Part shown: positions 3,634 to 44,700 of the stretch, piece after piece | Position numbering within the stretch: the stretch's first letter is position 1 | Layout: every line of letters starts with the position of its first letter | Source of the DNA: Chloroflexota bacterium | GTDB taxonomy: Bacteria > Chloroflexota > Dehalococcoidia > Lucifugimonadales > UBA3495 | NCBI GenBank assembly: GCA_009840135.1 | Contig: VXOH01000036.1 | Span: 1,720-65,719, forward strand | Length of the DNA: 64,000 bases | Direction of reading: 5' to 3' | Program-made: the position numbers and the translations under genes | Notes under the pieces: model-generated | What the model saw: only the letters and a program-made list of their open reading frames with translations | Database searches by the model: none | Told to the model about the DNA's origin: nothing

Positions 3634-4269
3634 ATGGTGGAGAATGCTCAACCGCAGGCCAATGGGGCAGACCCGGTTCGGGTGATTGTCTGGTACGACT
3701 ATATTTGACCCTGGTGCTACGTCGGCCTGGAGAGGGTTGACAAGTTGGGCCAGGATTACAACATTGCGGTGGAGGGTCGGGCGTATCTGCTGCGCCCCGA
3801 TACCCCGAAGGATGGGCTGCTGCGTCAGCCCCGTTCCGGTGAGACGGAGGATGAGCTCAGCGAGCCCATCCGGTCCCAGATTCGGGAAGCAAACCTGATA
3901 ATGAAGCCGCCCCAGGTGACACCCAACACCGTCTATGCCCTGGAGGCTACTGAGTACGCCCAGCAGCATGGCAAGTTCATGGAGTTCCACCATGCAGCAT
4001 ATAAGGCGTACTGGGAAGACCGGAAAGACCTGGGAAAGATCGAGGTACTGGCGGAGATAGCGAAGTCTGTTTCCCTGGATGCCGATGAAATGGTTCAATG
4101 CCTTGAAACTCGCGAACTTACGAACCTGGTAATGGGGCAATACCAGGAAGCACTACAGCAGGGAATCCGCGGCATCCCCACCTTTGTAGTTGGGAATCTG
4201 CTCTTTACCGGCGCTCACCCTTATGAAATTTTCAAGTCGGCCATGAACCAGTACCTGGAATCCGGTTAA
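3634..4269 (+). CDS. FrnE/DsbA-like thiol:disulfide oxidoreductase with predicted selenocysteine (UPWC redox motif; TGA at 3706-3708)
   Basis: The ORF track calls only 3745-4269 (TTG start), which lacks the N-terminal strand and active site. The same frame extends upstream to ATG 3634, preceded by GGAGG 3623-3627. It reads MVENAQPQANGADPVRVIVWYDYI[TGA]PWCYVGLERVDKLGQDYN..., matching the DsbA/FrnE W.DY.CP.CY.G motif with TGA at the first Cys. The C-terminus has GIRGIPTFVV and the restored length is 211 aa. Confidence 0.72.
3724..3751 (+). promoter_or_regulatory. Candidate bacterial SECIS-like hairpin for the TGA at 3706
   Basis: GGCCUGG (3724-3730) can pair with UUGGGCC (3745-3751): 4 G-C plus 3 G-U pairs. 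The 14-nt loop contains GGGUUG. The stem starts 16 nt after the UGA. Paired by eye only, not thermodynamically folded. Confidence 0.35.
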
Positions 4270-4295
4270 AATTGTTGGTAGGTGGCAAGCTAGAT

Positions 4296-4323
4296 GGGGC
4301 GACCAAAGAGGTCGCCCCTTTTT
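4296..4323 (+). terminator. Rho-independent terminator after the FrnE-like gene
   Basis: GGGGCGACC (4296-4304), loop AAAGA, GGTCGCCCC (4310-4318), followed by TTTTT (4319-4323). Confidence 0.8.
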
Positions 4324-4369
4324 CTGTGCAATGAAAAGCGAGGTAGCGAAGCGTTGCCGCCATTTCCGG

Positions 4370-4399
4370 TTGAACCCTTATTGGGCCGTGTGTTAATAT
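4370..4399 (+). promoter_or_regulatory. Candidate promoter for the nuoEFG-like cluster
   Basis: TTGAAC (4370-4375), 18-nt spacer, TAATAT (4394-4399) preceded by TGt. Confidence 0.4.
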
Positions 4400-4489
4400 C
4401 CAAATGCAATTTGTTACAGAATTCACGAACTTTTCCTCCGCCGGAATCCTCTCTGACTTGAGGTGGATGGGGCCAAGGAGCCCAAGGTG

Positions 4490-4993
4490 ATGGATGGGCT
4501 GAAAGAAAGAATCAGAAGGGCCGTCCACAATCAACCTCAACCCACAGTTACCATCCTCTCGTCCCTGTTGTCAGTTGAGGACGAGCTTGGCTACATTCCC
4601 AGAGAAGCCGTCGAAGAGGTTGCCGGTTATAACCGGGTAACGGTAAACGACGTATGGGCAGTAGTCTCCTTCTATCCCAATTTCAGGACCGTGCCCCCCT
4701 GTGAGCATCGTATCGAAGTTTGCTGGGGACCCTCCTGCCACCTGGTCGGAGCAATGCCGGTAATCGAATCAGTGCTTGAGGCTGCGGGACTGGCAGAAGA
4801 GGGAGACACGCCCGACGGGAAGTTGACGGTTCGCTATAACACGTGCCTGGGCGCCTGTGCCCTGGCGCCCGTAATGTCCATTGATCATCACCTGGTGGGG
4901 CGTGCGGACCCGAAAAAGGGCAGGGAACTGGTCGGCCGGGCTCTGGATAACAACAGCGGCGACCCACACGAAGGGGCGGGTTTCCGCGGTTAG
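4490..4993 (+). CDS. nuoE: NuoE-like [2Fe-2S] thioredoxin-fold subunit (24-kDa type)
   Basis: Motifs ILSSLL.VEDELGYIP, FYPNF, CWGPSCHLVG and CLGACALAPV (the 4 Cys of the 2Fe-2S site). The maximal ORF starts at GTG 4463. AAGGAG (4475-4480) favours GTG 4487 or ATG 4490 as the start. Confidence 0.85.
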   Translation: MDGLKERIRRAVHNQPQPTVTILSSLLSVEDELGYIPREAVEEVAGYNRVTVNDVWAVVSFYPNFRTVPPCEHRIEVCWGPSCHLVGAMPVIESVLEAAGLAEEGDTPDGKLTVRYNTCLGACALAPVMSIDHHLVGRADPKKGRELVGRALDNNSGDPHEGAGFRG

Positions 4994-5031
4994 GCGGCTG
5001 CCTCAGTGGCCGACACTCGCATGCAGCGACG

Positions 5032-6756
5032 ATGACAGTGACCTTTAACGATATCAAGGAAAAAGCCGACGCCAGATGGAACGAATTGAACTCTGTCCGT
5101 CCGTGGATACGGATAGGTACGGCTCTTTGCGGCCAGGCGGCGGGCGCCGAGGAAGTTGCCGATGCCTTCGACTCAGAACTTGAGGCGCGGGGCTTTGACG
5201 CCACGGTAAGCCGTGTCGGATGCCTGGGCCTCTGCTATGCCGAGCCCCTGGTGGACATTCTCGTACCCGGCCGGGGACGGGTAGTTTACGGCAACGTAGA
5301 TGTTGACATGGTCTCGGACCTGGTTGAGGATCACCTAAAGACAGGCCAGCCTGTTACGGACAATGTTATGGGCTGTCGCGCCCTGGGCTATGTCGGAGAG
5401 GAAATTGATGGGGAACTGGAGTCCCTGGACCAGCACCCCATGCGGGCCAGGGAGCAAAGAATCGCCCTGCGGAACGCCGGTCACATTGACCCCCTGGACA
5501 TTTATCAATATGTCGCCAACGGCGGCTATCATGCGCTGAATCGCGCTCTTACCGAGATCACCGCGGCAGATGTGCTGGAAGAGGTGAATGTTTCGGGATT
5601 GCGAGGGCGAGGCGGCGCCGCTTTTCCTGCCGGTACCAAGTGGCGGTTTCTGGCGGGCTCCAACGCTCCCGACAAGTACATTCTATGCAACTGCGAGGAA
5701 GGTGATCCTGGCGCCTTCAACGACAAGGGGATTCTGGAAAGCGACCCGCATACAGTGGTCGAGGGAATCATCCTGGCGGGGTACGCCACCGGGGCAAACC
5801 ACGGCTACATTTTTATCAGGCATGGTCACGACGGACCCATAGACCGTACCAAGGCAGCCATTGCCCAGGCTTATGAACTGGGATTGCTGGGGGAAAACAT
5901 CCTGGGGTCGGATTTTACCTTTGACCTGGAAGTGGCACTGACGGGAGATTCCTACGTTTCCGGCGAAGAGACCGCCCTTATGGAGGCAATAGAAGGCAGC
6001 CGCGCCATGCCCAGATACCGGCCTCCTTTTCCGGCCCAGGTTGGTGTTTTCGGAAAGCCCACCAACATCAACAACGTCAAAACCATGGCTTACGTACCCG
6101 AGATTGTTGCCAGGGGTGGCGAGTGGTTCGCCGGCATTGGCCACGACAAGAGCACCGGAACCGCCATTCTCTGCCTATCGGGCAACCTGAAATATACGGG
6201 CATGGTGGAAATTCCCATGGGCGTGAATCTTAACGAGGTCCTGTATGAAGTGGCCGGAGGAGTGCCGGGGGGAAAGCAATTGAGCTTCCTTCAGACCGGT
6301 GGCCCGTTGGGCGGCGTGCTGAGCGCCGACGCCACTGACCTGGTGCTGGACTTTGACATTTTTCGCACCGCCGGGGCAATACTGGGTTCCGGAGGCGTTA
6401 TTGCGGCTGATGAAGACACCTGTGTAGTTGACCTGACCAGGGTGTTGATCGCTTTCTGCCAGTATGAGTCATGTGGCAAGTGTTTTCCCTGCCGTATGGG
6501 CATGAGCCACATGCTGGAGGTCCTGGAACGAATCTGCCGGCTGGAAGGCACTTCGGATGACCTGGCGCTGATGAGCAGTATCGGGGAGAATATGCAGGCG
6601 GGATCGCTTTGCGGTCACGGTCAGCTGGGGTTCAATCCGGTAGCTTCTGCCCTTCGTTATTTCCCGGACCAGTTCCAGACGCACATTGTAGAGAAACGGT
6701 GCCCCACCGGGCGTTGCCAAGCGCCCCGCTTTGCTCCCAGTCTCAGTCGCAGATAG
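5032..6756 (+). CDS. nuoF: NuoF-like NADH-binding FMN/[4Fe-4S] subunit with an N-terminal thioredoxin-like 2Fe-2S extension (HoxF/FdsB/HydB-type architecture)
   Basis: 574 aa. GLRGRGGAAFPAGTKW (NADH/FMN site), CNCEEGDPGAF, ESCGKCFPCRMG and SLCGHGQ. The extra N-terminal domain carries CGQAAGA...VGCLGLC. Confidence 0.88.
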   Translation: MTVTFNDIKEKADARWNELNSVRPWIRIGTALCGQAAGAEEVADAFDSELEARGFDATVSRVGCLGLCYAEPLVDILVPGRGRVVYGNVDVDMVSDLVEDHLKTGQPVTDNVMGCRALGYVGEEIDGELESLDQHPMRAREQRIALRNAGHIDPLDIYQYVANGGYHALNRALTEITAADVLEEVNVSGLRGRGGAAFPAGTKWRFLAGSNAPDKYILCNCEEGDPGAFNDKGILESDPHTVVEGIILAGYATGANHGYIFIRHGHDGPIDRTKAAIAQAYELGLLGENILGSDFTFDLEVALTGDSYVSGEETALMEAIEGSRAMPRYRPPFPAQVGVFGKPTNINNVKTMAYVPEIVARGGEWFAGIGHDKSTGTAILCLSGNLKYTGMVEIPMGVNLNEVLYEVAGGVPGGKQLSFLQTGGPLGGVLSADATDLVLDFDIFRTAGAILGSGGVIAADEDTCVVDLTRVLIAFCQYESCGKCFPCRMGMSHMLEVLERICRLEGTSDDLALMSSIGENMQAGSLCGHGQLGFNPVASALRYFPDQFQTHIVEKRCPTGRCQAPRFAPSLSRR

Positions 6757-6799
6757 CTTACCGGCCCTTCAGGCTCAGCCTGAATTGTGAGAAGTATAG

Positions 6800-9637
6800 A
6801 TGCCCGATAACATTACCATTTCCATTGACGGGGTGGAGATAAAGACCCAACCGGGGAAAATGGTGCTGGAAGCGGCTATCGAAGCGGGAATATACATCCC
6901 TTATCTGTGCTACCACCCGGGCATGGACCCCTTTGCCGCCTGCAGGATGTGCGTAGTCTCCGTGGAAGGAGGCAGGGGGTTTCCTGCGGCTTGTACCCTT
7001 CCCGCAGCCGACGGAATGCGCATCCGAAGCGACTCCGAGGACGTGGATGAACTGCGCAGGTCGGTGATGCAGATGCTCATTGCCGAGCATCCTAATGGCT
7101 GTCTTACATGTCACCGTGTGGACATCTGTGGCCCCAGCGATGTTTGCCTAAGGCACGTTTCTGTGAACGACCGTTGTGTCACTTGCCCCAAGAACGAGCG
7201 CTGTGAGTTCAAGGACACGGTTCGCTACCTGGGAATGGAGCTGGAATCCCCTCTGAATTACAAATACAAGCAGGTGCCGCTGGAGGTCTCAGATCCCTTT
7301 TACGACAGGGATTACAACCTGTGCATTGCCTGCGGGCGTTGCGTGCGGGCGTGCGAAGAAATACGTGGCGACGACGCCATTTGTTTCACCGAACGTTCCG
7401 GCAAGGCCCTGATTGGGACGTCGTTTGGCTCTTCCCTGCTGGAGTCGGGCTGCGAATTTTGCGGCGCCTGCATTGATGTGTGCCCGGTGGGCGCGCTGGT
7501 GGAGCGGGACCACAAATGGGAGAAGCCCCGCAGCGTGGAGCAGACCATCTGTCCCCATTGCCCGGTGGGTTGCCAACTTAACCTGGAGCTAGGAGATTCC
7601 GGAGAACTTGTCCGGGTGGTCCCCGAAATTAACGCTCCCTCAAACAGGGGACAGGCTTGCTTTAAGGGGAAATTCGGTCTTGAGTTTCTTAACAGCGGGG
7701 AACGACTGGACAAGCCGCTGATTCGAAAGAACGGGGAGTTGGTGGAATCAAACTGGGATGATGCGCTGGACCTGGTGGCCTCGCGACTGCAGGAATACAA
7801 GGGCGAAGCATTTGCCCTGTTAACGGCCCCTGATTCCACCAACGAAGAGATGTACCTGGCCCAGAAGTTCGCCAGGGTTGCCATGGGCACCAACAGCGTG
7901 GACGTCACTTCGAACCTTTATCCCGAGCTTACCCAGGGGTTGCTTCGAGCTCTGGGCCACGGCGGGGCGACAAATCCCATTTGGGACCTGGAGAAGGCCG
8001 GCAGCGTTCTGGTTTTCAACTCGAACCTGACCGAGGACAACAATGTCCTAGCGCTGCCCATCAAGCGTGCGGCCAAGAACGGGGCCTCCCTCATAATCAT
8101 TGACTCGCGGGAGGTTGAACTCACTCGCCATGCCGATATGTGGCTCCGACCGAGGCCCGGAACCGAGTTGTTGCTTCTCGGCGGTATCCTGCGGGAGGTG
8201 CTCGACCAGGGATTGGTGAAGGAACAATGGGTGGAAGAAAACTGTGAAGATCCCGCTACCCTCTTCTATTACCTGCACAATCTGGACCTGGACGAGGTAG
8301 CCGCGACAACCCAGGTGAGCAGGAACTCCATGGCTCTGGCTGCCGGACAATTCGGTGGCGCGGAATCGAGCGCGGTGTGCTACGGCCTTAACAATGTACC
8401 GTCAGAATTGCAGCGGGATTGCGTAAGCGCCTTGTTGGACCTGGTCCTTTTAACCGGCAACGTGGGCAGGGCCGGGGCTGGCCTTTACCCGGTAAGGCAG
8501 GGAGCCAACGAGCAGGGCTCCTGGGACGTTGGCTGCATTCCCGGCCGGCTGCCCGGTGGCGCTTCTCCGAGAGATGAACGGCGCCGTTCCGAACTTGAAG
8601 AGTTGCTCAATTGTTCCCTTCCCCAGAATCGCGGCTTTGGTGTAACCAATTTTGCCGAGGCCGCCAGGGACGGCATTTTGAAGGCCTTGTTCCTGGTAGG
8701 CGACAGTCCTAACCTTACCAATGGCAACCTGGGCGACGCGGTGACCGCGCTGCAGGAGTTGGACTTCCTGGTGGTCATGGATGCGTTTCTGTCGCCGGCT
8801 GCCCGGGTCGCCGATGTGGTGCTGCCTCGCCGGACCTTCGTGGAAAAGGATGGCACTTTCACGAACCTTGAACGGAGGATTCAACGGCTGAAGCCCGTCC
8901 GGGAATGTGAAGACCAGGGACCGGAAACCGAAAGTGCGGTGTTTGGGCGGCTGGCCCAAAAAATGGGCGCCATGGGGTTTGACTTTCCGTCGGCTGGCGC
9001 AGTTATGGATGAGATTGCTCGGGTGGCGCCATCCTACGCCGGCGTTTCCTATGATCGCCTGGAATCGGAATCCAGGGTCGTGCTGAGGACCGGGTTGGAA
9101 AGCCCCAAGCCTACCCAGATGCTGTACGCCGGACGGGAATACCGCGGTTTACAGTGGCCCGTCTCCGAAGATACAGGGTCTGATACGCCCGTGCTGTACC
9201 AGGAGAGCTTTCCCCTGGGCAAGGCCAATTTAATCGCACCTGAGTTCAGAGTTCCGGAAGACCTGACTGATCCGGACTACCCCCTGTGGTTGGTTCCAGG
9301 CAGGGTGCTCTTGCAGCGGGACCGGGAAACCCGCGTCGAGTTGGAGCAAAGTTCCCGGCGGAACCGTATAGTTCGGGAAGAATTGGTAGAGCTCAGCGGT
9401 ATTGATGCCTCCGCCCAGTCCATACTGGATGGTGACTCGGTTCGTCTGGAGACACCAAGGGGTAGCCTGGCCGGTGTGGCTCGAGTCAGCGATGAGTTGC
9501 CATCGGGAATGGTGGCAATAACTGGCCTGTTCGGACAATTGGCGGTGGATCTTCAGGAATCTGATCATCCCGACCCCATGTCCCAGGCTCCAGGGTTGCA
9601 CGTGACCCCGGCCAGGCTGTTTAAAGTCGCAGAATAG
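6800..9637 (+). CDS. nuoG: NuoG-like Fe-S subunit with a degenerate molybdopterin-oxidoreductase domain (no Cys/Sec Mo ligand)
   Basis: 945 aa. N-terminal 2Fe-2S (YLCYHPGMDPFAACRMCVV), CIACGRCVRACEE, CEFCGACIDVCPVGAL and ICPHCPVGCQLNL. Where formate dehydrogenases carry C-A-R-x-C/U-H, this protein has VTSNLYPE, so it is not a catalytic FDH. No internal TGA. Confidence 0.8.
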   Translation: MPDNITISIDGVEIKTQPGKMVLEAAIEAGIYIPYLCYHPGMDPFAACRMCVVSVEGGRGFPAACTLPAADGMRIRSDSEDVDELRRSVMQMLIAEHPNGCLTCHRVDICGPSDVCLRHVSVNDRCVTCPKNERCEFKDTVRYLGMELESPLNYKYKQVPLEVSDPFYDRDYNLCIACGRCVRACEEIRGDDAICFTERSGKALIGTSFGSSLLESGCEFCGACIDVCPVGALVERDHKWEKPRSVEQTICPHCPVGCQLNLELGDSGELVRVVPEINAPSNRGQACFKGKFGLEFLNSGERLDKPLIRKNGELVESNWDDALDLVASRLQEYKGEAFALLTAPDSTNEEMYLAQKFARVAMGTNSVDVTSNLYPELTQGLLRALGHGGATNPIWDLEKAGSVLVFNSNLTEDNNVLALPIKRAAKNGASLIIIDSREVELTRHADMWLRPRPGTELLLLGGILREVLDQGLVKEQWVEENCEDPATLFYYLHNLDLDEVAATTQVSRNSMALAAGQFGGAESSAVCYGLNNVPSELQRDCVSALLDLVLLTGNVGRAGAGLYPVRQGANEQGSWDVGCIPGRLPGGASPRDERRRSELEELLNCSLPQNRGFGVTNFAEAARDGILKALFLVGDSPNLTNGNLGDAVTALQELDFLVVMDAFLSPAARVADVVLPRRTFVEKDGTFTNLERRIQRLKPVRECEDQGPETESAVFGRLAQKMGAMGFDFPSAGAVMDEIARVAPSYAGVSYDRLESESRVVLRTGLESPKPTQMLYAGREYRGLQWPVSEDTGSDTPVLYQESFPLGKANLIAPEFRVPEDLTDPDYPLWLVPGRVLLQRDRETRVELEQSSRRNRIVREELVELSGIDASAQSILDGDSVRLETPRGSLAGVARVSDELPSGMVAITGLFGQLAVDLQESDHPDPMSQAPGLHVTPARLFKVAE

Positions 9638-9752
9638 CAACAAGGAAATTCAAACCGGCAGTTGCTACAATTAAAGGGTCAGTGAGCGCCGGCTGGAACA
9701 ACACCTGCAGAATGCAGTTGAAGAATTAACTCCCAACACTCAGAGGTGAAGG

Positions 9753-10532
9753 ATGACCATTGGGGAAAACACCGTTGTGGCCGGTGAGGGCGACGATTCT
9801 CGCCCTGCTTACCGTACCGACAGCTTGCCGCAAGCCAACCTGGTCTATCGCAGGGATATAACTGAAGACTTGATGGTTATCAAGCTTGAGCCCCTGGACG
9901 GGCCCTTTTCCTTTAAGCCCGGCCAGTATTGCACCCTGGGAAAGGAAGGCGTAGAACGGGCTTACTCCATAGTCTCGGCTCCCCATGAACCGCAACTGGA
10001 GATTTTTGTCGAGCTGGTGCCCGACGGTGAACTGACGCCTAAGATGTGGCGGCTTCAACCCGGGGAGAACATGTCCCTCAGGCCCCGCCCCAAGGGGATA
10101 TTTACCCTCAACGAGAAGGTTCACCACCACCTGATGGTGGCCACGGTTACCGGTGTTGGACCCTATTTGAGCATCATACGCGAGTACCTGCACCAGGGTG
10201 GCGAGGGCCATCACTTCTATGTGCTTTTGGGGGCCAGCTACCAGGACGAGCTTACCTACGACACTGAGTTGGTCAGGCTGGCCGAGGAACACCCGGAATG
10301 CGTAAAGTTTGTGGCAACTGTCAGCCGGCCCCAGGAAGAGCGTAACGTGGACTGGGAGGGTGAAAAGGGAAGGGTCAACAATATCGTCCTGAAATACCTG
10401 GAAGAGTTCAACCTGCCGAAGGACGACACCATGGTTTATACCTGCGGCCACCCGGGCATGATTGAGGACGTAAGGGAGCAGGTGACACCGCTGGGCTGGC
10501 AGTTCAAGGAAGAGCGATTCTGGAAAGAGTAG
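9753..10532 (+). CDS. fpr: Ferredoxin/flavodoxin-NADP(+) reductase (FNR family)
   Basis: 259 aa. RAYSIVS (FAD RxYS motif), MVATVTGVGPYLS (NADP GxGxxP) and YTCGHPGM. RBS GAGGTGAAGG lies upstream of the ATG. Confidence 0.8.
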   Translation: MTIGENTVVAGEGDDSRPAYRTDSLPQANLVYRRDITEDLMVIKLEPLDGPFSFKPGQYCTLGKEGVERAYSIVSAPHEPQLEIFVELVPDGELTPKMWRLQPGENMSLRPRPKGIFTLNEKVHHHLMVATVTGVGPYLSIIREYLHQGGEGHHFYVLLGASYQDELTYDTELVRLAEEHPECVKFVATVSRPQEERNVDWEGEKGRVNNIVLKYLEEFNLPKDDTMVYTCGHPGMIEDVREQVTPLGWQFKEERFWKE

Positions 10533-10737
10533 ATACCAGGTTTGGGACGCGTTCCCTGTAGGTACGAACGCTTCCGGATTGCCAGGTCTCCACAGGCCTT
10601 TCTTCACGGCACAAATCCGAGCATTCAGGCGGTACTCGCAGTCCCGCCTTTAATTTTTACTAAATTGGACCTCTGCTTCGGTGGTTCGCTGGAGTCTGCC
10701 CAGCGCAATGGCCCTCATCCTTGGTGGGAACGGCCTT

Positions 10738-10766
10738 TTGTTGAAAGCCCCTCTCTGGGGTAAAAT
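10738..10766 (+). promoter_or_regulatory. Candidate promoter upstream of mutS
   Basis: TTGTTG (10738-10743), 17-nt spacer, TAAAAT (10761-10766). Confidence 0.3.
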
Positions 10767-10790
10767 GCTGCAATAGAACAACATTCAACC

Positions 10791-13469: not shown

Positions 13470-13661
13470 TCAGGCAGCCGCGAGGATGTTTGTTTTACGG
13501 GACAACCGGAATCATTGCCTTGCATTTCAAAAAGAGCCCGGCTTCAGTAATCCGGTGCAGGCGGATTCCGCGATTTCGAATCTCTGGAATCGGCCCGCCG
13601 GATTCTCGATAGTTCACCCCGGATTGCAGGGGCAGGGACAACCCAATGATTTGGAGGACTT

Positions 13662-14018
13662 ATGAGCTCAGCCGTGTTTTACTGGTGGCCGCGTTGATCA
13701 TCCTGTCGGAAAGCGAGAGAGTTGCTCTTGCAGAAAGGACTGGAACTGGAGGAACGGGACTACTTTAAAGACCCCCTTAACGAAACGGAACTCATGGATC
13801 TGGCTTCGATGGCGTCTCTTTCTGACCTGTTCGCGTGGCGCAGTCCCAGTTTCAAAAAATTGGGCCTGCCCAGCCAGGACATTTCCGAGCAGCAGATGGT
13901 CAAGTTGATCCTGGATGAGCCCAGGTTGCTGCGCCGGCCGATCACCAGGCTGGCAGACAGACTGATCATCGGGTCGAGCCCAAAGCAGATGGAGCAGGAA
14001 CTGGCCAACCTGCCGTAA
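13662..14018 (+). CDS. ArsC/Spx/YffB-family small redox protein with predicted selenocysteine (USSC motif; TGA at 13695-13697)
   Basis: The ORF track calls only 13722-14018 (TTG). The same frame extends to ATG 13662, preceded by GGAGGA 13653-13658. It reads MSSAVFYWWPR[TGA]SSCRKARELLLQKGLELEERDYFKDPL..., matching the family motif (I)YG.K.C..CRKA..WL...G.....D. with TGA at the first Cys. Restored length is 118 aa. Confidence 0.72.
13713..13731 (+). promoter_or_regulatory. Candidate SECIS-like hairpin for the TGA at 13695
   Basis: GCGAGAG (13713-13719) pairs with CUCUUGC (13725-13731): 7 bp including one G-U. The loop is AGUUG. The stem starts 16 nt after the UGA. Confidence 0.45.
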
Positions 14019-14854: not shown

Positions 14855-14942
14855 ACTTATTCAATGACTCGGCTCTTGTGAAGCGGTCCCGTCAATAGGC
14901 GCCTCCCTTCGCAGACCCAAGATGCCCTGAGGACGGGCCACC

Positions 14943-16879: not shown

Positions 16880-16922
16880 CATCAATCAGCCCAGGTTAAC
16901 TCTTGCCCAGGTTCAGCCGCTT

Positions 16923-18781: not shown

Positions 18782-19863
18782 CAGGTTCCTTCCCCTCCGG
18801 CTGTTGTTACCCGTTGGGAATCATCGGCCGCTTCCCGATTTACCGCCAACTGCTTCAGGGACAGGTTTTCCTTCCACATCAGTACGAAGCCGGCCACATT
18901 TACCGGGAGCCACAACGCCACCAGGTGTACTACCAGGGCGTAGCTGGCCGCCACCGCCCAATCGACACCCATTACGGCCAGCGTTTGTTGCGCTATCAGC
19001 TCAAAGGGACCGATTCCCCCTATGGAAACGGGAAAGGCGGTGGAAAGGTTGGAAGTTGCGGTTACCAGAACAATGGCCAGTGCAAATGCCCAGAGAGAAG
19101 TGAAGTAATCATTGATTCCGAAGGAGTAGGCAACCGTCATATAGACTAAAATCTCTCCAGCCCACACGGGCAGGGACAGGAGCATCATCATGCCGTGTTG
19201 CCTGGGAGAGCTGAGGATGCTCAGCCCCTCCACGAAATTCAAAGCCAGGTCTTTGAGGCGTGGGCCAAATCTGTTGGGAAGCCTCCTGGATATGCGGTCA
19301 ATTACAATCGCCGTGCCAGGATTGACCGCTATGAAGGTTATGACTGACAGGGCCGCCAGCAGTCCCAAGCCGGCTACCCCCGCCAGTATGAAGGCCGCGT
19401 TCTGGTAAACCAGACCCAGTTCGCCAAAAACACCAGCCAGCAACAGAAGCAGCGCGGCCAGTACACTAAGCAGGAAAAGGGTCAAACCGTCGTAGATGCG
19501 TTCAACGCCTATCGTGGCCAGGGCTGTGCTGCCGCTGAACTGTTCCCGTTGAGCCATATAATATGCCCGAACGAACTCACCCGCGCGGGCTGGCAGCACG
19601 TTGTTGGCTGCATATCCGATGACGACCACAGGGTACAGCCGCATCACTGAGATCTTGCGTAGCGGCGAGAGAATGTATCGCCACCTGAAGGCTCGAAAAT
19701 ATATGCCGATGAAATATATGACCACGGCCGGCACAATATACAGGTAATTGGCGCCTGCCAGGGCCGTTGCCATATCTTCCAGGTCAATAGTCCAGATCAG
19801 GAACAGCAGGAAAATCCCGCTCACCCCGACCCCCAGCCAAAGCCTCCAGTTTGTGATTCCCAA
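18781..19863 (-). CDS. Flippase-like / UPF0104 (lysyl-PG synthase TM-domain family) membrane protein
   Basis: 360 aa, polytopic. FRAFRWRYIL and NNVLPARAGEFVRAYY...GVERIYDG, typical of the family. Confidence 0.75.
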   Translation of the reverse strand: MGITNWRLWLGVGVSGIFLLFLIWTIDLEDMATALAGANYLYIVPAVVIYFIGIYFRAFRWRYILSPLRKISVMRLYPVVVIGYAANNVLPARAGEFVRAYYMAQREQFSGSTALATIGVERIYDGLTLFLLSVLAALLLLLAGVFGELGLVYQNAAFILAGVAGLGLLAALSVITFIAVNPGTAIVIDRISRRLPNRFGPRLKDLALNFVEGLSILSSPRQHGMMMLLSLPVWAGEILVYMTVAYSFGINDYFTSLWAFALAIVLVTATSNLSTAFPVSIGGIGPFELIAQQTLAVMGVDWAVAASYALVVHLVALWLPVNVAGFVLMWKENLSLKQLAVNREAADDSQRVTTAGGEGT

Positions 19864-19901
19864 GTAGTCCGTCCTGTCGGGAGCTGTACGCTCCCGGGGT
19901 C

Positions 19902-22721
19902 CTAGTTCACGGGGCTTGTTGGTCCCGCGTCGTTGCGTTGGTAGGTATAGTATTCCGAGTTGAACCAGTCTGCATCCAGCCGTCGCAGAACCACGTAACT
20001 GAGCACATCATGCCAGTTTTTCGCCGTTGTAGCAGCTTCGCGGAAGTATGCGAGGTCCTGGGTGATTTCTTCCGCCGGGTTTTCTTCCTGGCGATGTTCG
20101 CCCGGTCTTCGGTAGTTTTCAGGGAACCACAGAAGATTGCGTCGCGGTCCCGATTGAGTGTAACCCATCATGGAGCCTGGGTCGGACGGGTTGTTGTGGG
20201 CTGCCACCAGAATCACTGGATCCCCAACGTCGCCTGTCAGGGCGCTGCATCCTCCTGCCCCCCCTTCGTCCTTAAAGCACCCAAAGGTGAGGCTTCCTTC
20301 CCTTTCCTGGTGGCGCGTGTACCACTGGAAAGGATACCAGATGTCGTAGTCAACCCTGGGCGGCAGCGACGACTCCGAATCTATCCGGCGGTCGAAGTAG
20401 TTTTCGTCCAGTTCTTGATGGCTGTACAGCAAGTCCTTGCTTCCCTGGGCATAGACGAGGATCTCCCGGCGGGAGTCATCAAAGGTGTATGATGCCTGGA
20501 ATGCAGTCCAGGCGGTAAAAGCCAGCAACAGCGAAGCAATTCCCAGGCCAATCAGGGGAGGGCTGTCGGATATGCCCGTCTTTCTCGCCAGCCATGCCGT
20601 TGCCAGGGCCGACACGATGGCGACTACTGCAGCAGCAAGACCAATGTACATTTTCCAATGGCCGTCTCCGGTCAGGAGCAGGGCTGCTGTCACACCGAAA
20701 ATTATGGTCACCTGCGGCCCAATCAGCAGAGCCGTTGTCACCGGCCAGGTTGGGCGTACCAACAACCGGCGCCAGGGGATTCTGTCAAACCACTCCCCCA
20801 GCAACTTGCCGGCCAGGAATATGAAGGGCACGGTGATGTTGACCAGCAGCCAGGGCATCTTTTCGCTGGCTACCGTATAGGCAAGCAGATTTACCAGGGC
20901 CCAGAAGGCCAGAGCCATACCCAGTCGGTCCCTTCGCTTTATGAATACGACGGCACCCAAAATGCCGAATATGGTGGGCAGGAATTCGTACACCGACATG
21001 CCCACAAAATAGTAATACCAGGGTTGGTTGCCGCGGGCGACCTCCTGCTGGGCTATCCAGTAACCCATACCCTGCCAGGCGCCGCTGAAAATTCCCGCCG
21101 GATTGGTGAAAAAGGTGGTAAACAGGGTTGCCCAAACGGTGTAAAAGATGCCGGCACAGGCCAACCAGACTCCTCCTCGCCAAAGTATGCCAACCAGCAG
21201 AGAAACGGTTGCAGCAGCCAGGATAACGGCCGACGCCACCAGGTAATTCAGCGGCAAAGCGTTTCCGTTACTCTCCACATGGATGCCCTCGGGCAACAGT
21301 CCGGCAAGAAGGGAATCCACCTGGATTGTCGGCAAGAACAGAACGGAGAATACCAGCGATCCCAGCAAAGGCAGGAAAATGAGCGGCAAGCTATGCCTCC
21401 AGGGGAAACGGGCATAGATGAACCATCCCAGGGCTACCGCGACCAGGCATAATGCGCCAAGATAGTCCAGCCAGTTTCCTTGTGGCGCCACCATAGCGAG
21501 GAAAATGGCCGCGGCGGCGGCGACCGGCGGCACAACCCCCAATATGCGTCGTCCCTCTACTGCGCCCAACCACCGTCCGTACCAGACGTAAGCCGCCAGC
21601 ATCATCAGGGCCATGCCACCCACTACCCACGCGGGGAACGCATACAGTGGCAGTTCAATGAAAGGTTCACCCCATAGGGGGGCTCCAACAATGCCCTGGC
21701 TCACTCCGTCCCTTCCTACCAGGTCCAGCCCGATGGACTCACCCAGATTTGTAACCGCAGCATCGTCCAGCGCCAGTCCGGCCACCTTGACGCCCAATTC
21801 CCGAATTAGTTCAACGCCGGCGGACCACTGGGGCAGGGTGAGGGTAACCAGCAACAGGAGGAAACCTGCGGCCGGCGTCACCCAGATCGCTCTCAGCAGG
21901 CCCCAGGCCCTCTTTGGAGGGCTTTCAACCTTGTAACCATGGTCAACGTCCGGTTCAGACGGTAATCCCTGCGTGGGCGAGCCGCCGTTGCCCTCGATCC
22001 CCGCGCCTCCGCTGTCAGCAGCGTCAGGTTCCCTGGCAGCTTTTTCCCTGGAGAAAGGAATGGCCAGGAGAAGGGCCAAAGCCCCGAAAATGGCGGCAAT
22101 TATGTAGGCCGTCTCCTTGCTGGCAAATGCGATGGCCAGGAGTGAGGAAGAGATGTAAAGGAATCTGTTCCTGGGGTTATGGCAATAGTGCCACAAGAGC
22201 ATAAAAAGGGAGACGGTCAGGACCGCCATGATGATGTCGTTGCGGCCAAATCGGCTGAAATATAACAACGACGGTGACACAGCCAGCATCAGACCTGTAA
22301 TGAATGCGCCGGCTCGGCCCAATTGGCTGCGCAAAAAGCAAGGAAGGATAACCAGAACGGTACCGAAAATCACATAGGCGAGGCGCGCAACAAAGTCGGA
22401 GTCACCCAGCAGGCGAAGGAAGGCCGCTACCAGTTCAATCTGAAACGGCCCATGCATCCAGGGGGAATGAACGAACCCTTCGAAATTGGACAGCCGCCAG
22501 GAATAGTAGAGATGAATTGCCTCGTCGTAGTGCATGGTGCGCCCGCTGAGATCCCAGAGGCGCATAACCAGGGCGGCAAGGCCGAGGCCCAGGAACGCCG
22601 CCACGTATCTTCCCTGGCTGGCGCCAACAAGGAAGAGGACTGCCCTCCCCGCCCAGGATTGGCGGAGGGGGACGCCGGATGAGTTCGTGCCTTGTTGGGT
22701 GCTATTGTCGTGGGCCGCCAT
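19902..22721 (-). CDS. GT-C-fold membrane glycosyltransferase-like protein (TIGR03663 / PMT_2-like)
   Basis: 939 aa, highly polytopic. N-terminal RLWDLSGRTMHYDEAIH (acidic DE motif in the first loop). Sits 14 nt downstream of the YYY-domain gene. Confidence 0.7.
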   Translation of the reverse strand: MAAHDNSTQQGTNSSGVPLRQSWAGRAVLFLVGASQGRYVAAFLGLGLAALVMRLWDLSGRTMHYDEAIHLYYSWRLSNFEGFVHSPWMHGPFQIELVAAFLRLLGDSDFVARLAYVIFGTVLVILPCFLRSQLGRAGAFITGLMLAVSPSLLYFSRFGRNDIIMAVLTVSLFMLLWHYCHNPRNRFLYISSSLLAIAFASKETAYIIAAIFGALALLLAIPFSREKAAREPDAADSGGAGIEGNGGSPTQGLPSEPDVDHGYKVESPPKRAWGLLRAIWVTPAAGFLLLLVTLTLPQWSAGVELIRELGVKVAGLALDDAAVTNLGESIGLDLVGRDGVSQGIVGAPLWGEPFIELPLYAFPAWVVGGMALMMLAAYVWYGRWLGAVEGRRILGVVPPVAAAAAIFLAMVAPQGNWLDYLGALCLVAVALGWFIYARFPWRHSLPLIFLPLLGSLVFSVLFLPTIQVDSLLAGLLPEGIHVESNGNALPLNYLVASAVILAAATVSLLVGILWRGGVWLACAGIFYTVWATLFTTFFTNPAGIFSGAWQGMGYWIAQQEVARGNQPWYYYFVGMSVYEFLPTIFGILGAVVFIKRRDRLGMALAFWALVNLLAYTVASEKMPWLLVNITVPFIFLAGKLLGEWFDRIPWRRLLVRPTWPVTTALLIGPQVTIIFGVTAALLLTGDGHWKMYIGLAAAVVAIVSALATAWLARKTGISDSPPLIGLGIASLLLAFTAWTAFQASYTFDDSRREILVYAQGSKDLLYSHQELDENYFDRRIDSESSLPPRVDYDIWYPFQWYTRHQEREGSLTFGCFKDEGGAGGCSALTGDVGDPVILVAAHNNPSDPGSMMGYTQSGPRRNLLWFPENYRRPGEHRQEENPAEEITQDLAYFREAATTAKNWHDVLSYVVLRRLDADWFNSEYYTYQRNDAGPTSPVN

Positions 22722-22735
22722 GGCGCTTCATTCTA

Positions 22736-25204
22736 TCATTTGAAGGGTGAGTAGGAGATCTTTTCATAGATGACTACGCTGTCGCGCTTGAACGCGGTTT
22801 CGAAAACGCCGTCCAGCGCCGCGGGTTGGCTGACCCCGTACTTGGCCCTCTCTCGGTGGCCCATGTAAACGTAGCGAACATCATAGAAGGAGAGTAGTCG
22901 GTAAACGACCAGGGGGTCGTCGCTCTGATAAATTCGGGCTATGTCCTCCTCCCTGCCCTGAAAGGTCTCGGCTGTTCCCCTCCACTGGTGTTCATGTCCC
23001 TTCCAGCCCAATATGGTTGGCCTTCCCGTGGCCGCCGAAACCCGGCTGAATTCTGAGTAATCTTCACCAACGGCCTCGACAATTCTGCCGGGCGCGGCTT
23101 CGTCCCGGAGCCAGGTAATGGCAGCATACTCGCCCGGATGGCTGTTCTTGATGAATTGCAACCCGTCCAGGGTATTTGAACTGAAATCGTGGTGTTCACC
23201 CAGGACTCCCGTTCGGTCAAGGGTTGCTCCCACGGGATAGTAGAGCGCACCAATCAGCAGCAAACAAGCTGCTCCGCCCAGGGCCAATTGGGCCCCCCGA
23301 CCGAGGACTTGCAGCTGCTTGAAGCGCGAGACGCAGTAGTAGATTCCGAATGCCCCGACAATGCCGAGCAGGAGCCAAGCCTGGTAATAGACCTTGAATA
23401 CCGTATTCATCCGGTTTCCAAAGAAGTCAGCCAGGTGGAACAATTCGGCCCCACTCAGCAGGTAGGCTGCGGCGGCCAATAACAAGAGTGGAAAAATCGT
23501 CCCGCTGCTTTTCCCTCTTAGAGCCAGGCTCAATGCCGCATATCCGGACAAGGCAGCCACCGCCAGTCCGGGCACCACGGTAACTGTCCTGATAACCAGC
23601 AACCCCGTCAGTGAATCAGTCTCCCGAGTCAGCGCCCCCCAGGTAGCTGCCAAAACCAGCCAAAGGAGCCAGGGAAGAACAGCCACCATTACCGCCATCA
23701 CGATGAGCGATGCTTCTTGCTTTGCTGGCCTGGGCCAGTCCTGGAGTCGACGCCATAGAAATAGAAGTCCCAGGAAGGCAGGGCCCCCCATTACCAGCAC
23801 AAAGTGAATCGGTCTTGTGCCAGGCCCGAGGTAGGGAAGGATACCCGATACCTGGGAGCTGAGGGTAACGTAGAAAGGCAGGTACAACAGAACCGAAAGC
23901 ACCAGCAACGGGACCACAAGGCTCGCCGAGGCAGCGACTGAACCCATCAACTTGCGCGTCCCGAAGTCGTCCCCGCTTTCGTTTGCATCGCCGGTTGACT
24001 CACGCGACAGTAGCGCTTTCGCCAGGATAACTGCGCCCACTATTCCGCCATAGACCGGAAAGTCCCAGGAATTTACAAAGGCCAAAGCTCCCAGGGCCAG
24101 GGCCAATAATCCGAAGTGCCAGGAGTTTCTTAGTATCCAGACGCGGCCTATTGGTTCCGGCAGAAAAAGGACATTCAAGGCCAGCGCCAGGACCAACAGC
24201 AGGAAGGGCAGGTTTAATACGTGGGAATGCAGGTCTCCCAGCAGGAAACTGAAAAACGGGAACTCGGTTATGGTGTAGTCCAGGCTGACTCCGCCCCGCA
24301 GGGTGTCTATTACCCGGGTCGCTCGCCACCACCACCAGTTGCTGTCCGGGAAAAAGCCGCCGCCGGTGGTCCCTTCCAAGCCCTTGATACCCGCCCATTG
24401 CCAGAATTCAAGAGGAGCCCAACCCCGTACCTGGACCAGTTCCAGCACTCCTTCCAGGTTTCCGGCCACCGCTATTAGGGTTGGAGCGAAGAGACCGAAG
24501 AGTATTCCAGAGCGAAAACCTCCTCCGGACAGTCGTATCAGGTTATAGGTCAGGCCAAATGAACCCGCGACCACCAGGGCGGGAATGGTAGCCATGGCCA
24601 GATTGTAGCCCGCGTTGGAAGTTATGCCAGCCAGCTTCATGGGCAACGCCATCATGAAGTGACCGAAGTAGTAGTAGCTAATGGAATAGCCGGAGAGCCA
24701 GGGGTCTTCGGGAGGAAACGATGGGCTTTGCAGTATGCTGGTCAGAAAGGCAAAGTCCATAGGTTTTTCTGTGTGGTTTATCGCCGGAACTTCGGAGATT
24801 ACAAAGACCCAGGCCGTAAAGGTTGCCAGGAACAAACCTTCCACGATGAGTATGTACCGCCATTGCTCCCTCAGATACTCCTCAATTTCCGGCCAGCGCC
24901 GGTAATACAACCAGGCGAATACGACCCCACCGACCAGCAGGATTGCGGCGATGGTAGCTGGAGAATTGGGCAATACGCCGGTCAGCCCAAGTACCCACAA
25001 GGTGTAGCCGGCGAGCAACAATGCCAGAACTTTGGCCAGGGAATAGCCCCGGTCGGGCAGAGCTTTGAACAGGAAGATGGCCATAGGGGTGGCCAGCAGT
25101 CCCATTAGTTGGATGGTGAGGAACCAGGCCAGGTGATCAGACACGGGCGCCAACCCCGTAAGGGAGTTTCGTCCAAATATGCTGGGAAGAAACCCCGTGG
25201 GCAA
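22736..25204 (-). CDS. YYY-domain (DUF2298 / chlor_Arch_YYY-type) polytopic membrane protein
   Basis: 822 aa with the signature GYSISYYYFGH. The C-terminal soluble part is homologous to the C-terminus of the 1553-aa protein at 59061-63722. Confidence 0.75.
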   Translation of the reverse strand: MPTGFLPSIFGRNSLTGLAPVSDHLAWFLTIQLMGLLATPMAIFLFKALPDRGYSLAKVLALLLAGYTLWVLGLTGVLPNSPATIAAILLVGGVVFAWLYYRRWPEIEEYLREQWRYILIVEGLFLATFTAWVFVISEVPAINHTEKPMDFAFLTSILQSPSFPPEDPWLSGYSISYYYFGHFMMALPMKLAGITSNAGYNLAMATIPALVVAGSFGLTYNLIRLSGGGFRSGILFGLFAPTLIAVAGNLEGVLELVQVRGWAPLEFWQWAGIKGLEGTTGGGFFPDSNWWWWRATRVIDTLRGGVSLDYTITEFPFFSFLLGDLHSHVLNLPFLLLVLALALNVLFLPEPIGRVWILRNSWHFGLLALALGALAFVNSWDFPVYGGIVGAVILAKALLSRESTGDANESGDDFGTRKLMGSVAASASLVVPLLVLSVLLYLPFYVTLSSQVSGILPYLGPGTRPIHFVLVMGGPAFLGLLFLWRRLQDWPRPAKQEASLIVMAVMVAVLPWLLWLVLAATWGALTRETDSLTGLLVIRTVTVVPGLAVAALSGYAALSLALRGKSSGTIFPLLLLAAAAYLLSGAELFHLADFFGNRMNTVFKVYYQAWLLLGIVGAFGIYYCVSRFKQLQVLGRGAQLALGGAACLLLIGALYYPVGATLDRTGVLGEHHDFSSNTLDGLQFIKNSHPGEYAAITWLRDEAAPGRIVEAVGEDYSEFSRVSAATGRPTILGWKGHEHQWRGTAETFQGREEDIARIYQSDDPLVVYRLLSFYDVRYVYMGHRERAKYGVSQPAALDGVFETAFKRDSVVIYEKISYSPFK

Positions 25205-25265
25205 TCAGGAGGTAGTGGGATAAAGTCATAGCCCGCACCGGCGGATGAATGGTTGCCCTGCCTGG

Positions 25266-26222
25266 TCAGGGTACCGGGGCAAGTAGAGAATCCACGAATT
25301 GGGTGGCGTCAAAGGGAGCGATGTCCTCCAGGGACTCACCGGTGCCAATGAAGAGAATCGGCACATTCAGTTCATGCTTGATAGCCAGCGCGATTCCTCC
25401 CCGCGCTGTGCCGTCCAGCTTAGCCAGGAATATTCCGGTACATCCAACCGCCTGGGTGAATGCCTGGGCCTGGGCCAGACCATTCAGACCGGTTGTTGCG
25501 TCCAGGGTCAGGATGACCTGCTGCGGCGCCGAGGAATCAAGCCGGTTCAATACGCGGTGGACTTTTTTCAACTCCTCCATCAAATTGGTACGGGTGTGCA
25601 GCCTGCCGGCAGTGTCAACAATCAATACGTCGGCGCCGCGGGCCCGGCTGGCCTGGTAAGCATCATAGGCGACGGCCCCTGGGTCGGCACCGGGCTGGTG
25701 GCTGATTACTTCTACGCCCACCCGGTCTCCGAGGATTTCCAACTGCTCTTCTGCAGCGGCCCGGAAGGTGTCTGCGGCCCCCAGCACCACCTTTTTTCCT
25801 TCGCGGGTGAAATGGTGGGCCAGCTTGGCTATGCTGGTGGTCTTTCCCACCCCATTCACTCCGACGACAAGAATCACGTAGGGCGAAGACACTGAGGAAA
25901 AATCCTGCCACGCGTCCGAGCCGTCATCAGCCTGAAGGTCTTGAACCAGGGATGCCTTGAGCCGGTCAAATGCAGTGTCGGCGTCGGAAATGCCCTCGTC
26001 TTGAACGTGCGTTTTCAGATCCTCGATTATTCGCAGGGAGGCTTCTACACCTACATCGGCGGAAATCAGGATTTCTTCGAGCTCTTCCCAAACCGCTTCA
26101 TCCAGGTCAGAGGACCTGAGAACATCGAGGATGCGGCCGAACCACCGTTCCCTGCTTCGCTTGACGCCTTGTTCGGTCCTGGCCTGGTTGTCTTCCCTGT
26201 TTCGCTGGAAGAATGAGAGCAT
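25266..26222 (-). CDS. ftsY: Signal recognition particle receptor FtsY
   Basis: 318 aa. [31 protein letters not shown] and [11 protein letters not shown]. The N-terminus MLSFFQR...FGRILDVL resembles short FtsY starts. Confidence 0.9.
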
Positions 26223-27067
26223 GGCTTTTCCCGAGTGCTGGTTGCAGAGTTGGTACTGTCTGAATCAGGATTTTCCAGGAATGCTTCGGCGGTATCCGCA
26301 AGGTGCCCGCCGGATTGCGCCGGCGCAATTGGCTCCCCCGCTGCCATGGACTGAGGGAAATCGGCGACCTCGCATTGGTCCAGTGCTACCTCGGCGGCGG
26401 CTCGTTCAGCATCGGTTTTCTTGCTGCCCTTGCCCAGTCCCAGAACCCGTTCATCTACCAGTACTTCCACCGTGAAAACAGGTTGGTGGTCGGGTCCCTC
26501 GGTGGAAACCAGCCTGTAATGAGGTGTGGAGAGCCCCATCCCCTGTACCATTTCCTGTAACCGGGACTTGGGATTCTCGATTCGACCCCGGCGCCGTCCG
26601 ATATCTTCTATCTCCGGTCCGAGAGCCCTGAGCGCGAATCCCCGTGCGGCCTCGTATCCCTGGTCCAGGTAGATAGCGGCTACCACCGACTCAAAGGCTT
26701 CTTCGAGTATGGATTCCTTGTCCTGGCCGCCTGACTCCAATTCTCCCTTTCCCAGGGAAAGGTGCTTTCCCATGGACAAGCGGCGTGCCGCTCGGGCCAG
26801 GGATGGACGGCAAACGACAAAAGAGCGACCCTTGGTTAGTTCGCCCTCGGTAATCCCGGGGAGTTTGTGATAAAGCTCGGTGGAAACTATGAGCTCAAGA
26901 ACCGCGTCCCCCAGAAACTCCATGCGCTCATAGGAATCCAGGGGTGACCCGCCGTGCTCATTGAGGTAGGAACGATGGACCAGGGCCTGCTTTAGCAAAC
27001 CCTGGTCCTTAAAGGTCAGGCCGAGATTGGATTCCAGGTCTTCTATTGCCAAATCGCTACCGGGCAA
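26066..27067 (-). CDS. rnc: Ribonuclease III with a ~95-aa low-complexity C-terminal tail
   Basis: 333 aa, TTG start. HRSY, ERMEFLGDAVLE catalytic signature and a dsRBD (PKSRLQE...GSKKTDAERAAAEVAL). The tail overlaps the 5' 157 nt of ftsY in another frame. Confidence 0.85.
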   Translation of the reverse strand: MPGSDLAIEDLESNLGLTFKDQGLLKQALVHRSYLNEHGGSPLDSYERMEFLGDAVLELIVSTELYHKLPGITEGELTKGRSFVVCRPSLARAARRLSMGKHLSLGKGELESGGQDKESILEEAFESVVAAIYLDQGYEAARGFALRALGPEIEDIGRRRGRIENPKSRLQEMVQGMGLSTPHYRLVSTEGPDHQPVFTVEVLVDERVLGLGKGSKKTDAERAAAEVALDQCEVADFPQSMAAGEPIAPAQSGGHLADTAEAFLENPDSDSTNSATSTREKPCSHSSSETGKTTRPGPNKASSEAGNGGSAASSMFSGPLTWMKRFGKSSKKS

Positions 27068-27088
27068 TTTCGGTCCCTGGAGCCAACC

Positions 27089-27721
27089 CTAGATCAGGCC
27101 GTGGGGCCAGGGCGGAGATGGACGCTTTACTTCTCCAACGTGCTGGGCATCGGTGATCACCCGAGTCAGGGACTCGTAGATCTCGCCGGACTGCTCCGCC
27201 GGTGGAATGTGCATCTTCACGAAAGCGACACCGCCATTCGGAGCCACGTAAGTAGGCACACCAAAAGCGCCGTACTCTTCAACGGCCTCCGTGTGGCTTT
27301 CACCAATTTCCCTGAGCAGGTCAGGGTCGGCGAGGTCCTCGCGGAACCGGGCCATGTCTATGCCCGAATTCTTGACCGCTTCCTCCATGACTTCCATCTC
27401 GGTGAGGCTCCGGCGTTCTTCATGCCTGAGCTTCAACAAAGCAAGGAAGAAAGACTCGAAAGCGTCCTTGCCCTGCCGCTTGGCCGCCAAGCCGGCACGA
27501 TGGGCCAGCAGGGTATTGTCGGAGCCGTCAAGAGCGCCGGGCTGTTCCCAATACTTGAACTCGTCCCCTTTGTCGCTGTTTACCTGCTCCAGGGAGAAGG
27601 GCTTCCAGTCAATATTTACCTCTTGTCCAGTGGTTTCCCGTACCTGCGCCAGCCACATGGCAGCGTTGTACACGAAGGGTCAACGGAAGTCGTAAAACGT
27701 CTTGAAATCCGCTTCGGCCAT
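27089..27721 (-). CDS. DsbA-family (single-Cys CPxA/V-type) protein with predicted selenocysteine (UPFV; TGA at 27682-27680)
   Basis: The ORF track calls 27089-27673 (GTG). The same frame extends to ATG 27721-27719, with AGGAGG (complement of 27729-27734) 7 nt upstream. It reads MAEADFKTFYDFR[TGA]PFVYNAAMWLAQVRE...IDWKPFSLEQVN, matching F.D..CP..Y....W plus the F/MSL..LN block of this DsbA subfamily, with TGA at the Cys. Restored length is 210 aa. Confidence 0.68.
27647..27662 (-). promoter_or_regulatory. Candidate SECIS-like hairpin for the TGA at 27682-27680
   Basis: On the minus strand, UGCCA (27662-27658) pairs with UGGCG (27651-27647): 5 bp including one G-U. The loop is UGUGGC. The stem starts 18 nt after the UGA. 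It is short and needs folding. Confidence 0.3.
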
Positions 27722-44698: not shown

Positions 44699-44700
44699 GC

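Follow-up and report, generated by a model that had tools for sequence, protein, structure and literature searches.

A stretch of 64,000 nucleotides from a Chloroflexota bacterium (GenBank assembly GCA_009840135.1, contig VXOH01000036.1, positions 1,720 to 65,719 of the forward strand), hereafter called the window, was analyzed for three candidate selenoprotein genes, C1, C2, and C3, in each of which an in-frame TGA would be read as selenocysteine (Sec; U in peptide sequences). All coordinates below are window positions unless a related locus is named. In ENA, the window forms part of a 67,236-bp metagenome scaffold (ERZ23491722, ENGE20-1_SAMN12347673_METAG-scaffold_346). The closest relatives of the window were Dehalococcoidia or Chloroflexota assemblies, of which some were named SAR202 cluster and several carried isolate names that are apparently sponge-derived. 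Bacteria of the SAR202-type Dehalococcoidia live as aerobic heterotrophs in the deep ocean and in sponges.

Three genes with an in-frame TGA at the active site

C1 (3634-4269, plus strand; 211 codons) is an FrnE/DsbA-like thiol-disulfide oxidoreductase gene with the active site U-P-W-C. Its TGA (3706-3708) is codon 25, in the context ...VIVWYDYI-U-PWCYVGLERV..., and a Shine-Dalgarno sequence GGAGG (3623-3627) lies 6 nt 5' of the ATG at 3634. C2 (13662-14018, plus strand; 118 codons) belongs to the ArsC/Spx family and has the active site U-S-S-C-R-K-A; the TGA is codon 12 (13695-13697; ...FYWWPR-U-SSCRKAREL...), and GGAGG (13653-13657) lies 4 nt 5' of the ATG at 13662. C3 (27089-27721, minus strand; 210 codons) is a DsbA/Rv2466c-like gene with the single-Sec site U-P-F-V, in which the TGA is codon 14 (27680-27682; ...FYDFR-U-PFVYNAAMW...) and AGGAGG (27729-27734) lies 7 nt 5' of the ATG at 27721. 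Each gene contains exactly one in-frame TGA, and it falls at the catalytic position.

The Shine-Dalgarno sequences were identified by inspection of the sequence, as were alternative starts downstream of the TGA, namely TTG at 3745 in C1, TTG at 13722 in C2, and, on the minus strand, GTG at 27673 in C3. A preliminary description of this DNA had claimed an upstream ATG with a Shine-Dalgarno sequence, a Sec codon at position 25, 12, or 14 in place of the N-terminal nucleophile, and a TTG or GTG start just downstream. Both kinds of start were present in all three genes, and the placement of Sec was borne out by the sequence and structure alignments described below.

Family assignment and homology at the TGA site

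Pfam searches were run with the TGA read as Cys. C1 matched PF01323 over residues 17-204, beginning at profile position 2 (E = 9e-31; 107.5 bits with a gathering cut-off of 25.6), and C3 matched the same family from residue 8 and profile position 4 (E = 9e-18; 65.2 bits, cut-off 25.6) in addition to the Rv2466c-like family PF22234 (E = 3e-9; 37.9 bits, cut-off 27). C2 matched PF03960 (ArsC) over residues 7-111 from profile position 1 (E = 7e-18; 65.2 bits, cut-off 24). The concern that the upstream extensions would fail to align to their families was thus not realized, as the three proteins align from profile positions 1-4.

Structure alignments, made with X at the Sec site, placed the C1 site on the first Cys of CPWC in FrnE (PDB 5cnw), the C2 site on the first Cys of the Spx CxxC motif, and the C3 site on the single Cys of PDB 7dk9, a position occupied by Ser in the partner entry 7dka. 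Rv2466c itself is presumably a two-Cys protein, whereas C3 has a single redox residue.

Homologs with Cys at the site were found for each family. The Cys forms of C1 (P0322 and P0361) read YICPWCYVGL at 45-48% identity, and that of C2 (P0245, encoded at locus L068 with the codon TGC) reads WWPRCSSCRK at 61% identity. For C3, eleven full-length proteins (P0131 and others) read FYDFRCPFVYNA at 65-68% identity, and the syntenic C3 ortholog at locus L066 has TGT at the Sec position.

Conservation of the TGA and of the upstream codons

A scan for C1 homologs with one genome per species gave 48 loci, all from Dehalococcoidia or Chloroflexota. TGA occupied the aligned position in 49/49 C1 sequences (the window and the 48 loci), in 13/13 C2 sequences (the window and 12 loci), and in 14 C3 sequences (the window and 13 further loci). 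The TGA-bearing homologs of the three genes share 61-91% protein identity and come from independent Dehalococcoidia or SAR202-type assemblies, and syntenic genes are also carried by many complete Dehalococcoidia chromosomes, long-read ones included; chromosomes with the orthologs include OY761558.1, OZ244885.1, OZ247428.1, OZ219949.1, and OZ244136.1. Twelve of the 48 C1 loci have a C2 homolog about 10 kb downstream of C1; the spacing of C1 and C2 is simply conserved synteny.

Over the 24-33 nt that precede the TGA, the mean entropies across homologs were 0.40/0.16/1.03 at codon positions 1/2/3 for C1, 0.11/0.24/0.79 for C2, and 0.34/0.24/1.01 for C3. Judged by this three-periodic pattern, the region 5' of the TGA evolves as coding sequence in all three genes. 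The invariant C1 residues Val -10 and Arg -9 are encoded by four and six different codons, respectively, across the homologs. The upstream ATG with a Shine-Dalgarno-like site is kept in 48/49 C1, 12/13 C2, and 12/14 C3 sequences.

The codon immediately 5' of the UGA was found to be synonymously invariant. It is ATT or GTT in 49/49 C1 sequences (3703-3705 in the window) and CGT in both 13/13 C2 sequences (13692-13694) and 13/13 distinct C3 coding sequences (27685-27683, minus strand). Therefore, a U directly precedes the UGA in every sequence of the three families, which may reflect a context requirement for recoding.

Conserved hairpins downstream of the TGA

SECIS-like hairpins (SECIS, selenocysteine insertion sequence) were located with RNAalifold on the homolog alignments. 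The upper hairpin of C1 spans 3722-3740 (plus strand), within a longer stem of 3710-3754 in the window sequence, and has an apical loop of the UGGAGC type. The C2 hairpin (13713-13731, plus strand) has a 7-bp stem and the loop AGUUG, and the C3 hairpin (27647-27665, minus strand) has 6 bp with one mismatch and one bulge and the loop A/G-UGU. Counted from the U of the UGA, pairing begins at 16 nt in C1, 18 nt in C2, and 17 nt in C3. The three hairpins share a common geometry but differ in sequence, and they could not be aligned without arbitrary gaps.

Pairing was kept in 99.6% of the cells of the C1 alignment (44 distinct sequences) and in 100% of those of C2 (13 sequences) and C3 (10 distinct sequences). 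One compensatory CG-to-UA change and nine one-sided changes were seen in C2. In C3, one pair covaries as CG:UA 6:4 at two synonymous third positions, which was matched by 1 of 500 shuffles, and the hairpin core GCC-(A/G)TG-TGG-CTG is fixed save for the A/G (Met/Val) position. The normalized synonymous entropy of codons +1 to +14 was lower than that of the rest of the gene in C1 (0.44 versus 0.79; p = 1.5e-4) and C2 (0.44 versus 0.69; p = 0.008). The C1 hairpin was also exceptionally stable (z = -3.13), ranking first among the 196 windows of the gene, and only 0.7% of background windows were as stable. The C3 ortholog with a Cys codon (TGT) has no hairpin (z = 0.10, compared with -1.66 for C3).

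As in bacterial SECIS elements (Escherichia coli fdhF type; bSECISearch model), the stem-loops are located within the coding sequence directly after the UGA, and their apical loops contain G and start 23-26 nt from its U. Unlike those elements, the hairpins are short (upper stems of 6-8 bp), match no Rfam family, and follow a UGA that is always preceded by U. A U at -1 together with a 6-8 bp hairpin 16-18 nt from the UGA may constitute a lineage-typical recoding signal.

Distribution of Sec and Cys forms

In the C3 family, Sec and Cys forms (UxxV/CxxV) are interleaved at 63-90% identity and occupy a common syntenic slot adjoining rnc and ftsY. In contrast, the best 120 database relatives of C1 are all Sec forms, and Cys forms of C1 occur only at 48% identity or less. 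The Cys form (TGC) of the ArsC-like gene at locus L068 (365-736) has retained, 3' of its Cys codon, the complete hairpin GUAAGGGAGUUGCUCUUAC, which looks like a fossil SECIS and suggests a recent change from Sec to Cys. A Sec form fixed in the C1 clade, interleaved Sec and Cys forms in C3, and a hairpin-keeping Cys form of C2 together make a data set for studying Sec/Cys exchange.

Selenoprotein assignment and alternative explanations

In all three genes, the TGA and its flanks show conservation of the recoding type, homologs have Cys at the Sec site, and a conserved hairpin lies downstream. C1, C2, and C3 are very probably true bacterial selenoprotein genes, carried by a SAR202-related member of the Dehalococcoidia that is associated with sponges or the ocean. 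The preliminary description had read them in the same way, and this is supported by the conservation of the TGA, the flanks, the Cys homologs, and the hairpins.

In the proposed mechanism, translation would begin at the upstream ATG, and the hairpin about 16-18 nt past the UGA, acting as a bacterial SECIS, would recruit SelB with GTP and Sec-tRNA(Sec), so that Sec is inserted and termination does not occur. Sec would thereby take the place of the N-terminal nucleophilic Cys of a thioredoxin-fold active site. C1 would be a cytoplasmic FrnE-type DsbA whose U-x-x-C motif forms a selenenylsulfide redox couple, C2 a putative ArsC/Spx-type U-x-x-C protein, and C3 a single-selenol U-x-x-V protein of the DsbA/Rv2466c-like type, presumably working with a low-molecular-weight thiol. 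The involvement of SelB and tRNA(Sec), the actual incorporation of selenium, the redox chemistry, and the substrates of C1-C3 are what we infer from these data.

Several results weigh against the selenoprotein assignment. No selA, selB, selC, or selD was found in the window by Pfam searches of every sizeable open reading frame (ORF) and by ARAGORN, as the preliminary description had already stated, and no Sec machinery was found outside it, either in the sequence read from the remainder of the 67-kb contig or in related loci totaling about 1 Mb. Scanning the window against Rfam with gathering thresholds gave no match to any family. The C1 hairpin shows zero compensatory changes over its 44 distinct but almost invariant sequences, C2 has a single compensatory change, and the covariation in C3 concerns one pair among only 10 related sequences. 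The reduction in synonymous entropy was not significant in C3 (0.47 for codons +1 to +14 versus 0.61 for the rest; p = 0.15). Moreover, 17% of ordinary coding windows are as stable as the C2 hairpin (z = -2.06) and 8% are as stable as the C3 hairpin (z = -1.66), so that folding energy alone is convincing for the C1 hairpin only. Because the C2 and C3 stems are matched by so many coding windows, a GC-rich stem seen in one sequence, to which the preliminary description had appealed, is weak evidence; the distance of 16-18 nt that it gave holds, provided that counting starts from the U of the UGA. It is the comparative data that carry the argument for the three genes.

The UGA of C1-C3 might instead be decoded as Trp or Cys by a near-cognate tRNA, either through context-dependent read-through or by a SelB-independent route. 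Such decoding would fit the failure to find Sec machinery in the window, the contig, and the related loci, the Trp that some public pipelines give at the site, and the codon before the UGA, which always ends in U and might provide a read-through context. However, the Trp calls are artefacts of a code with TGA as Trp, as locus L067 has a plain TGA, and the homologs carry Cys at the site but in no case a true Trp codon. The affected residue is the catalytic nucleophile of three distinct redox families, as is classic for Sec/Cys pairs, and a conserved hairpin follows at the SECIS distance. In addition, the families of C1-C3 have been published as selenoprotein families, and BSepDB, which takes only species with the Sec pathway, lists two Dehalococcoidia genomes. 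Decoding as Trp or Cys is therefore considered very unlikely.

It is less credible still that the TGAs are true stops, with functional proteins starting at the downstream TTG or GTG, without the N-terminal strand and the active site, and with a chance or vestigial upstream ORF. Every gene caller has chosen this solution, and the alternative starts at 3745, 13722, and 27673 do exist, but the upstream codons are conserved three-periodically with free synonymous change, the Pfam domains start 5' of the TGA, and the upstream ATG and Shine-Dalgarno sequence are conserved. The truncated product would be without the catalytic motif, and the downstream start of C1 is not conserved, the public truncated homolog calls spanning 147-183 aa. 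A pseudogene mark, an assembly error, or a reassigned code with TGA as a sense codon would be conceivable, since errors can occur in metagenome assemblies and there are lineages with a reassigned TGA. This explanation is effectively refuted by the identical TGA in dozens of independent assemblies, long-read complete chromosomes among them, and by the single TGA per gene at the catalytic position. TGA also terminates 9 of the 29 confident genes of the window, which therefore uses the standard code without reassignment.

Relation to known selenoprotein families

DsbA-like and ArsC-like selenoproteins were listed in genomes by Zhang et al. (2006), and the Global Ocean Sampling (GOS) survey (Zhang & Gladyshev 2008) listed three families with the domains and motifs of C1, C2, and C3, namely 'DsbA 1' (pfam01323, UxxC; 63 Sec and 704 Cys sequences), 'Arsenate reductase 2' (cd03032, UxxC; 42 Sec and 238 Cys sequences), and 'DsbA 3' (pfam01323, UxxV; 5 Sec and 72 Cys sequences). 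BSepDB (2026) contains two genomes of Dehalococcoidia, one with 49 and the other with 46 selenoprotein genes.

C1 resembles 'DsbA 1', a family enriched in marine samples, and the DsbA-like selenoproteins in its Pfam domain and its UxxC motif with Sec first, and its structural relative is FrnE of Deinococcus, which has CPWC. It differs from the GOS family in that its lineage is now assigned, to SAR202-type Dehalococcoidia, and in that its best 120 relatives, stored as truncated proteins, are Sec forms. C2 resembles 'Arsenate reductase 2' and the ArsC-like selenoproteins in having PF03960 and U-x-x-C at the region of the Spx CxxC and the ArsC catalytic Cys. Unlike the proteins captured by the Spx/MgsR model TIGR01617 and the ArsC (seleno)protein model NF041106, C2 lies below both cut-offs (68.4 bits versus 75.05, and 32.6 bits versus 85, far short of it). 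Therefore, C2 belongs to a subfamily not covered by these curated models, with a putative ArsC/Spx-like function. C3 resembles 'DsbA 3', the Rv2466c-like proteins, and single-Cys DsbA-domain proteins such as 7dk9 in its exact U-x-x-V motif (UPFV in C3), its PF01323 and PF22234 domains, and its single redox residue. Whereas 'DsbA 3' comprised only 5 Sec sequences of unknown origin, the C3 family is abundant and has a fixed slot by rnc and ftsY.

C1-C3 thus add members to known selenoprotein families, in a class whose richness in selenoproteins has already been catalogued. The preliminary description had overrated their novelty, as publications of 2006 and 2008 contain the exact families and motifs and the syntenic genes lie on many complete Dehalococcoidia chromosomes. 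Knowledge of selenoproteins is left unchanged, since the families, the motifs, and the richness of Dehalococcoidia were already on record; the correction of the annotation is nevertheless useful. A literature search on SAR202 with selenoprotein, selenocysteine, or selenium returned nothing specific linking them.

A broader proposal is that SAR202-type Dehalococcoidia have fixed Sec across whole clades of housekeeping thiol oxidoreductases, with a compact lineage-typical signal that is missed by NCBIfam and Rfam. We put this forward tentatively and think it rather unlikely. If it were true, the annotation of an abundant ocean lineage would systematically understate both its selenium demand and a selenoproteome that is large and of ecological importance.

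Public annotation of the three families

The public products of the window genes are all truncated (C1, 174 aa; C2, 98 aa; C3, 194 aa in NCBI). More generally, the calls in ENA, NCBI, and JGI were either truncated or had Trp at the site, which agrees with the earlier remark that such genes are invisible to ordinary ORF calling. Trp stands at the Sec position in two database proteins, P0140 and P0343. P0140 corresponds to locus L067 (313-945), the DNA of which has a plain TGA and when translated does not give the deposited protein; the Trp therefore came from a caller that used a code with TGA as Trp on a short contig.

No NCBIfam model, the selenoprotein-aware ones included, reached its cut-off on C1, C2, or C3. 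C1 scored 63.8 against the Rcas_1661 (seleno)lipoprotein model NF041057 (cut-off 190), in the C-terminal half only, and C3 had no match to the selenoprotein-aware models NF041106 and NF041057. The truncation of the three families persists because the curated NCBIfam models miss their cut-offs. Hundreds of database clusters in the three families are stored truncated without the active site or with a false Trp, and such entries corrupt both the alignments of the families and the inference of function in an abundant marine lineage. The main value of C1-C3 lies in annotation; the three families fall outside the selenoprotein-aware models of NCBI.

Search for Sec machinery and further recoded genes

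ARAGORN detected no tRNA gene of any kind in the window and 52 related loci, and tblastn of the related loci with E. coli SelD and SelA queries gave no match. When all TGA-joined ORF pairs of the window were scanned for coding potential, C3 and C1 took the top two ranks; C2 fell below the threshold of that scan and had been found by an earlier redox-motif scan. The sole additional lead, at 41921 (plus strand), proved to be two adjacent genes in the same frame, the first ending in a TGA stop with an ATG four codons on. The longest ORF of that region (41297-42490, minus strand; 397 aa), which has no Pfam match, was rejected as spurious; the plus strand carries two genes there. These are located at 41327-41923, read from the sequence as flavin-reductase-like, and at 41933-43079.

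Clustering of all TGA-centered peptides from about 1 Mb of loci was too noisy, since off-frame translations of conserved genes cluster as well. A filtered TGA scan of the related loci yielded two tandem ArsM-like S-adenosylmethionine methyltransferase genes with TGA at a conserved Cys. Both genes were present in L021 (15630-16376 and 14802-15575, minus strand), L026, and L051, and one was present in L037. Their sites read …NWFSU(V/I)AGA… and …DLWTAUIGGA…, a hairpin follows the ArsM-like TGA at 15776 of L021, and in related genomes these genes lie within 10 kb of the C1 ortholog. Their best NCBIfam matches were ArsM selenoprotein models, below the cut-off. ArsM is another known Sec family (GOS analysis 2008). 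The other hits of the filtered scan were discarded. A C-terminal 'CUC' extension of an ABC transporter (L034, L035, and L021) was a low-complexity tail with an overlapping next gene and an ordinary TGA stop, and several further hits were upstream-of-start artefacts.

The ArsM-like TGA genes of the related loci and the BSepDB counts make it plausible that the genome holds many more such genes. If there were about 50 of them in 3-4 Mb, three within 24 kb would, by rough inference, be a local excess.

Neighboring genes

Unrelated housekeeping genes lie between C1, C2, and C3, and nothing connects the three in function. The surrounding genes include otsA/otsB, nuoEFG-like genes, mutS, mutL, ftsY, rnc, a nuoA-N operon, eno, and gap. 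The nuoA-B-C-D-H-I-J-K-L-M-N operon (43259-54994) is itself without E, F, and G, and it contains an unusually long intra-operon gap of 612 nt between nuoI and nuoJ (48299-48910), with no convincing ORF and no Rfam match.

The nuoE/F/G-like genes lie about 34 kb away from this operon (4463-9637) and are followed by a gene for an FAD/NAD-binding oxidoreductase (9753-10532). The last of them (6800-9637, plus strand) encodes a 945-aa NuoG/FdsA-like molybdopterin protein, which reads SNLYPEL where FdsA of R. capsulatus (6tg9) has ARVCHSP. Tyr-Pro thus stands in place of the Mo-ligand Cys and the His of FdsA, and the paralog therefore has neither a Cys or Sec ligand nor the catalytic His, in line with the earlier description of a NuoG paralog resembling formate dehydrogenase without a Sec or Cys ligand. 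The protein is probably a NuoG of complex I rather than a formate dehydrogenase.

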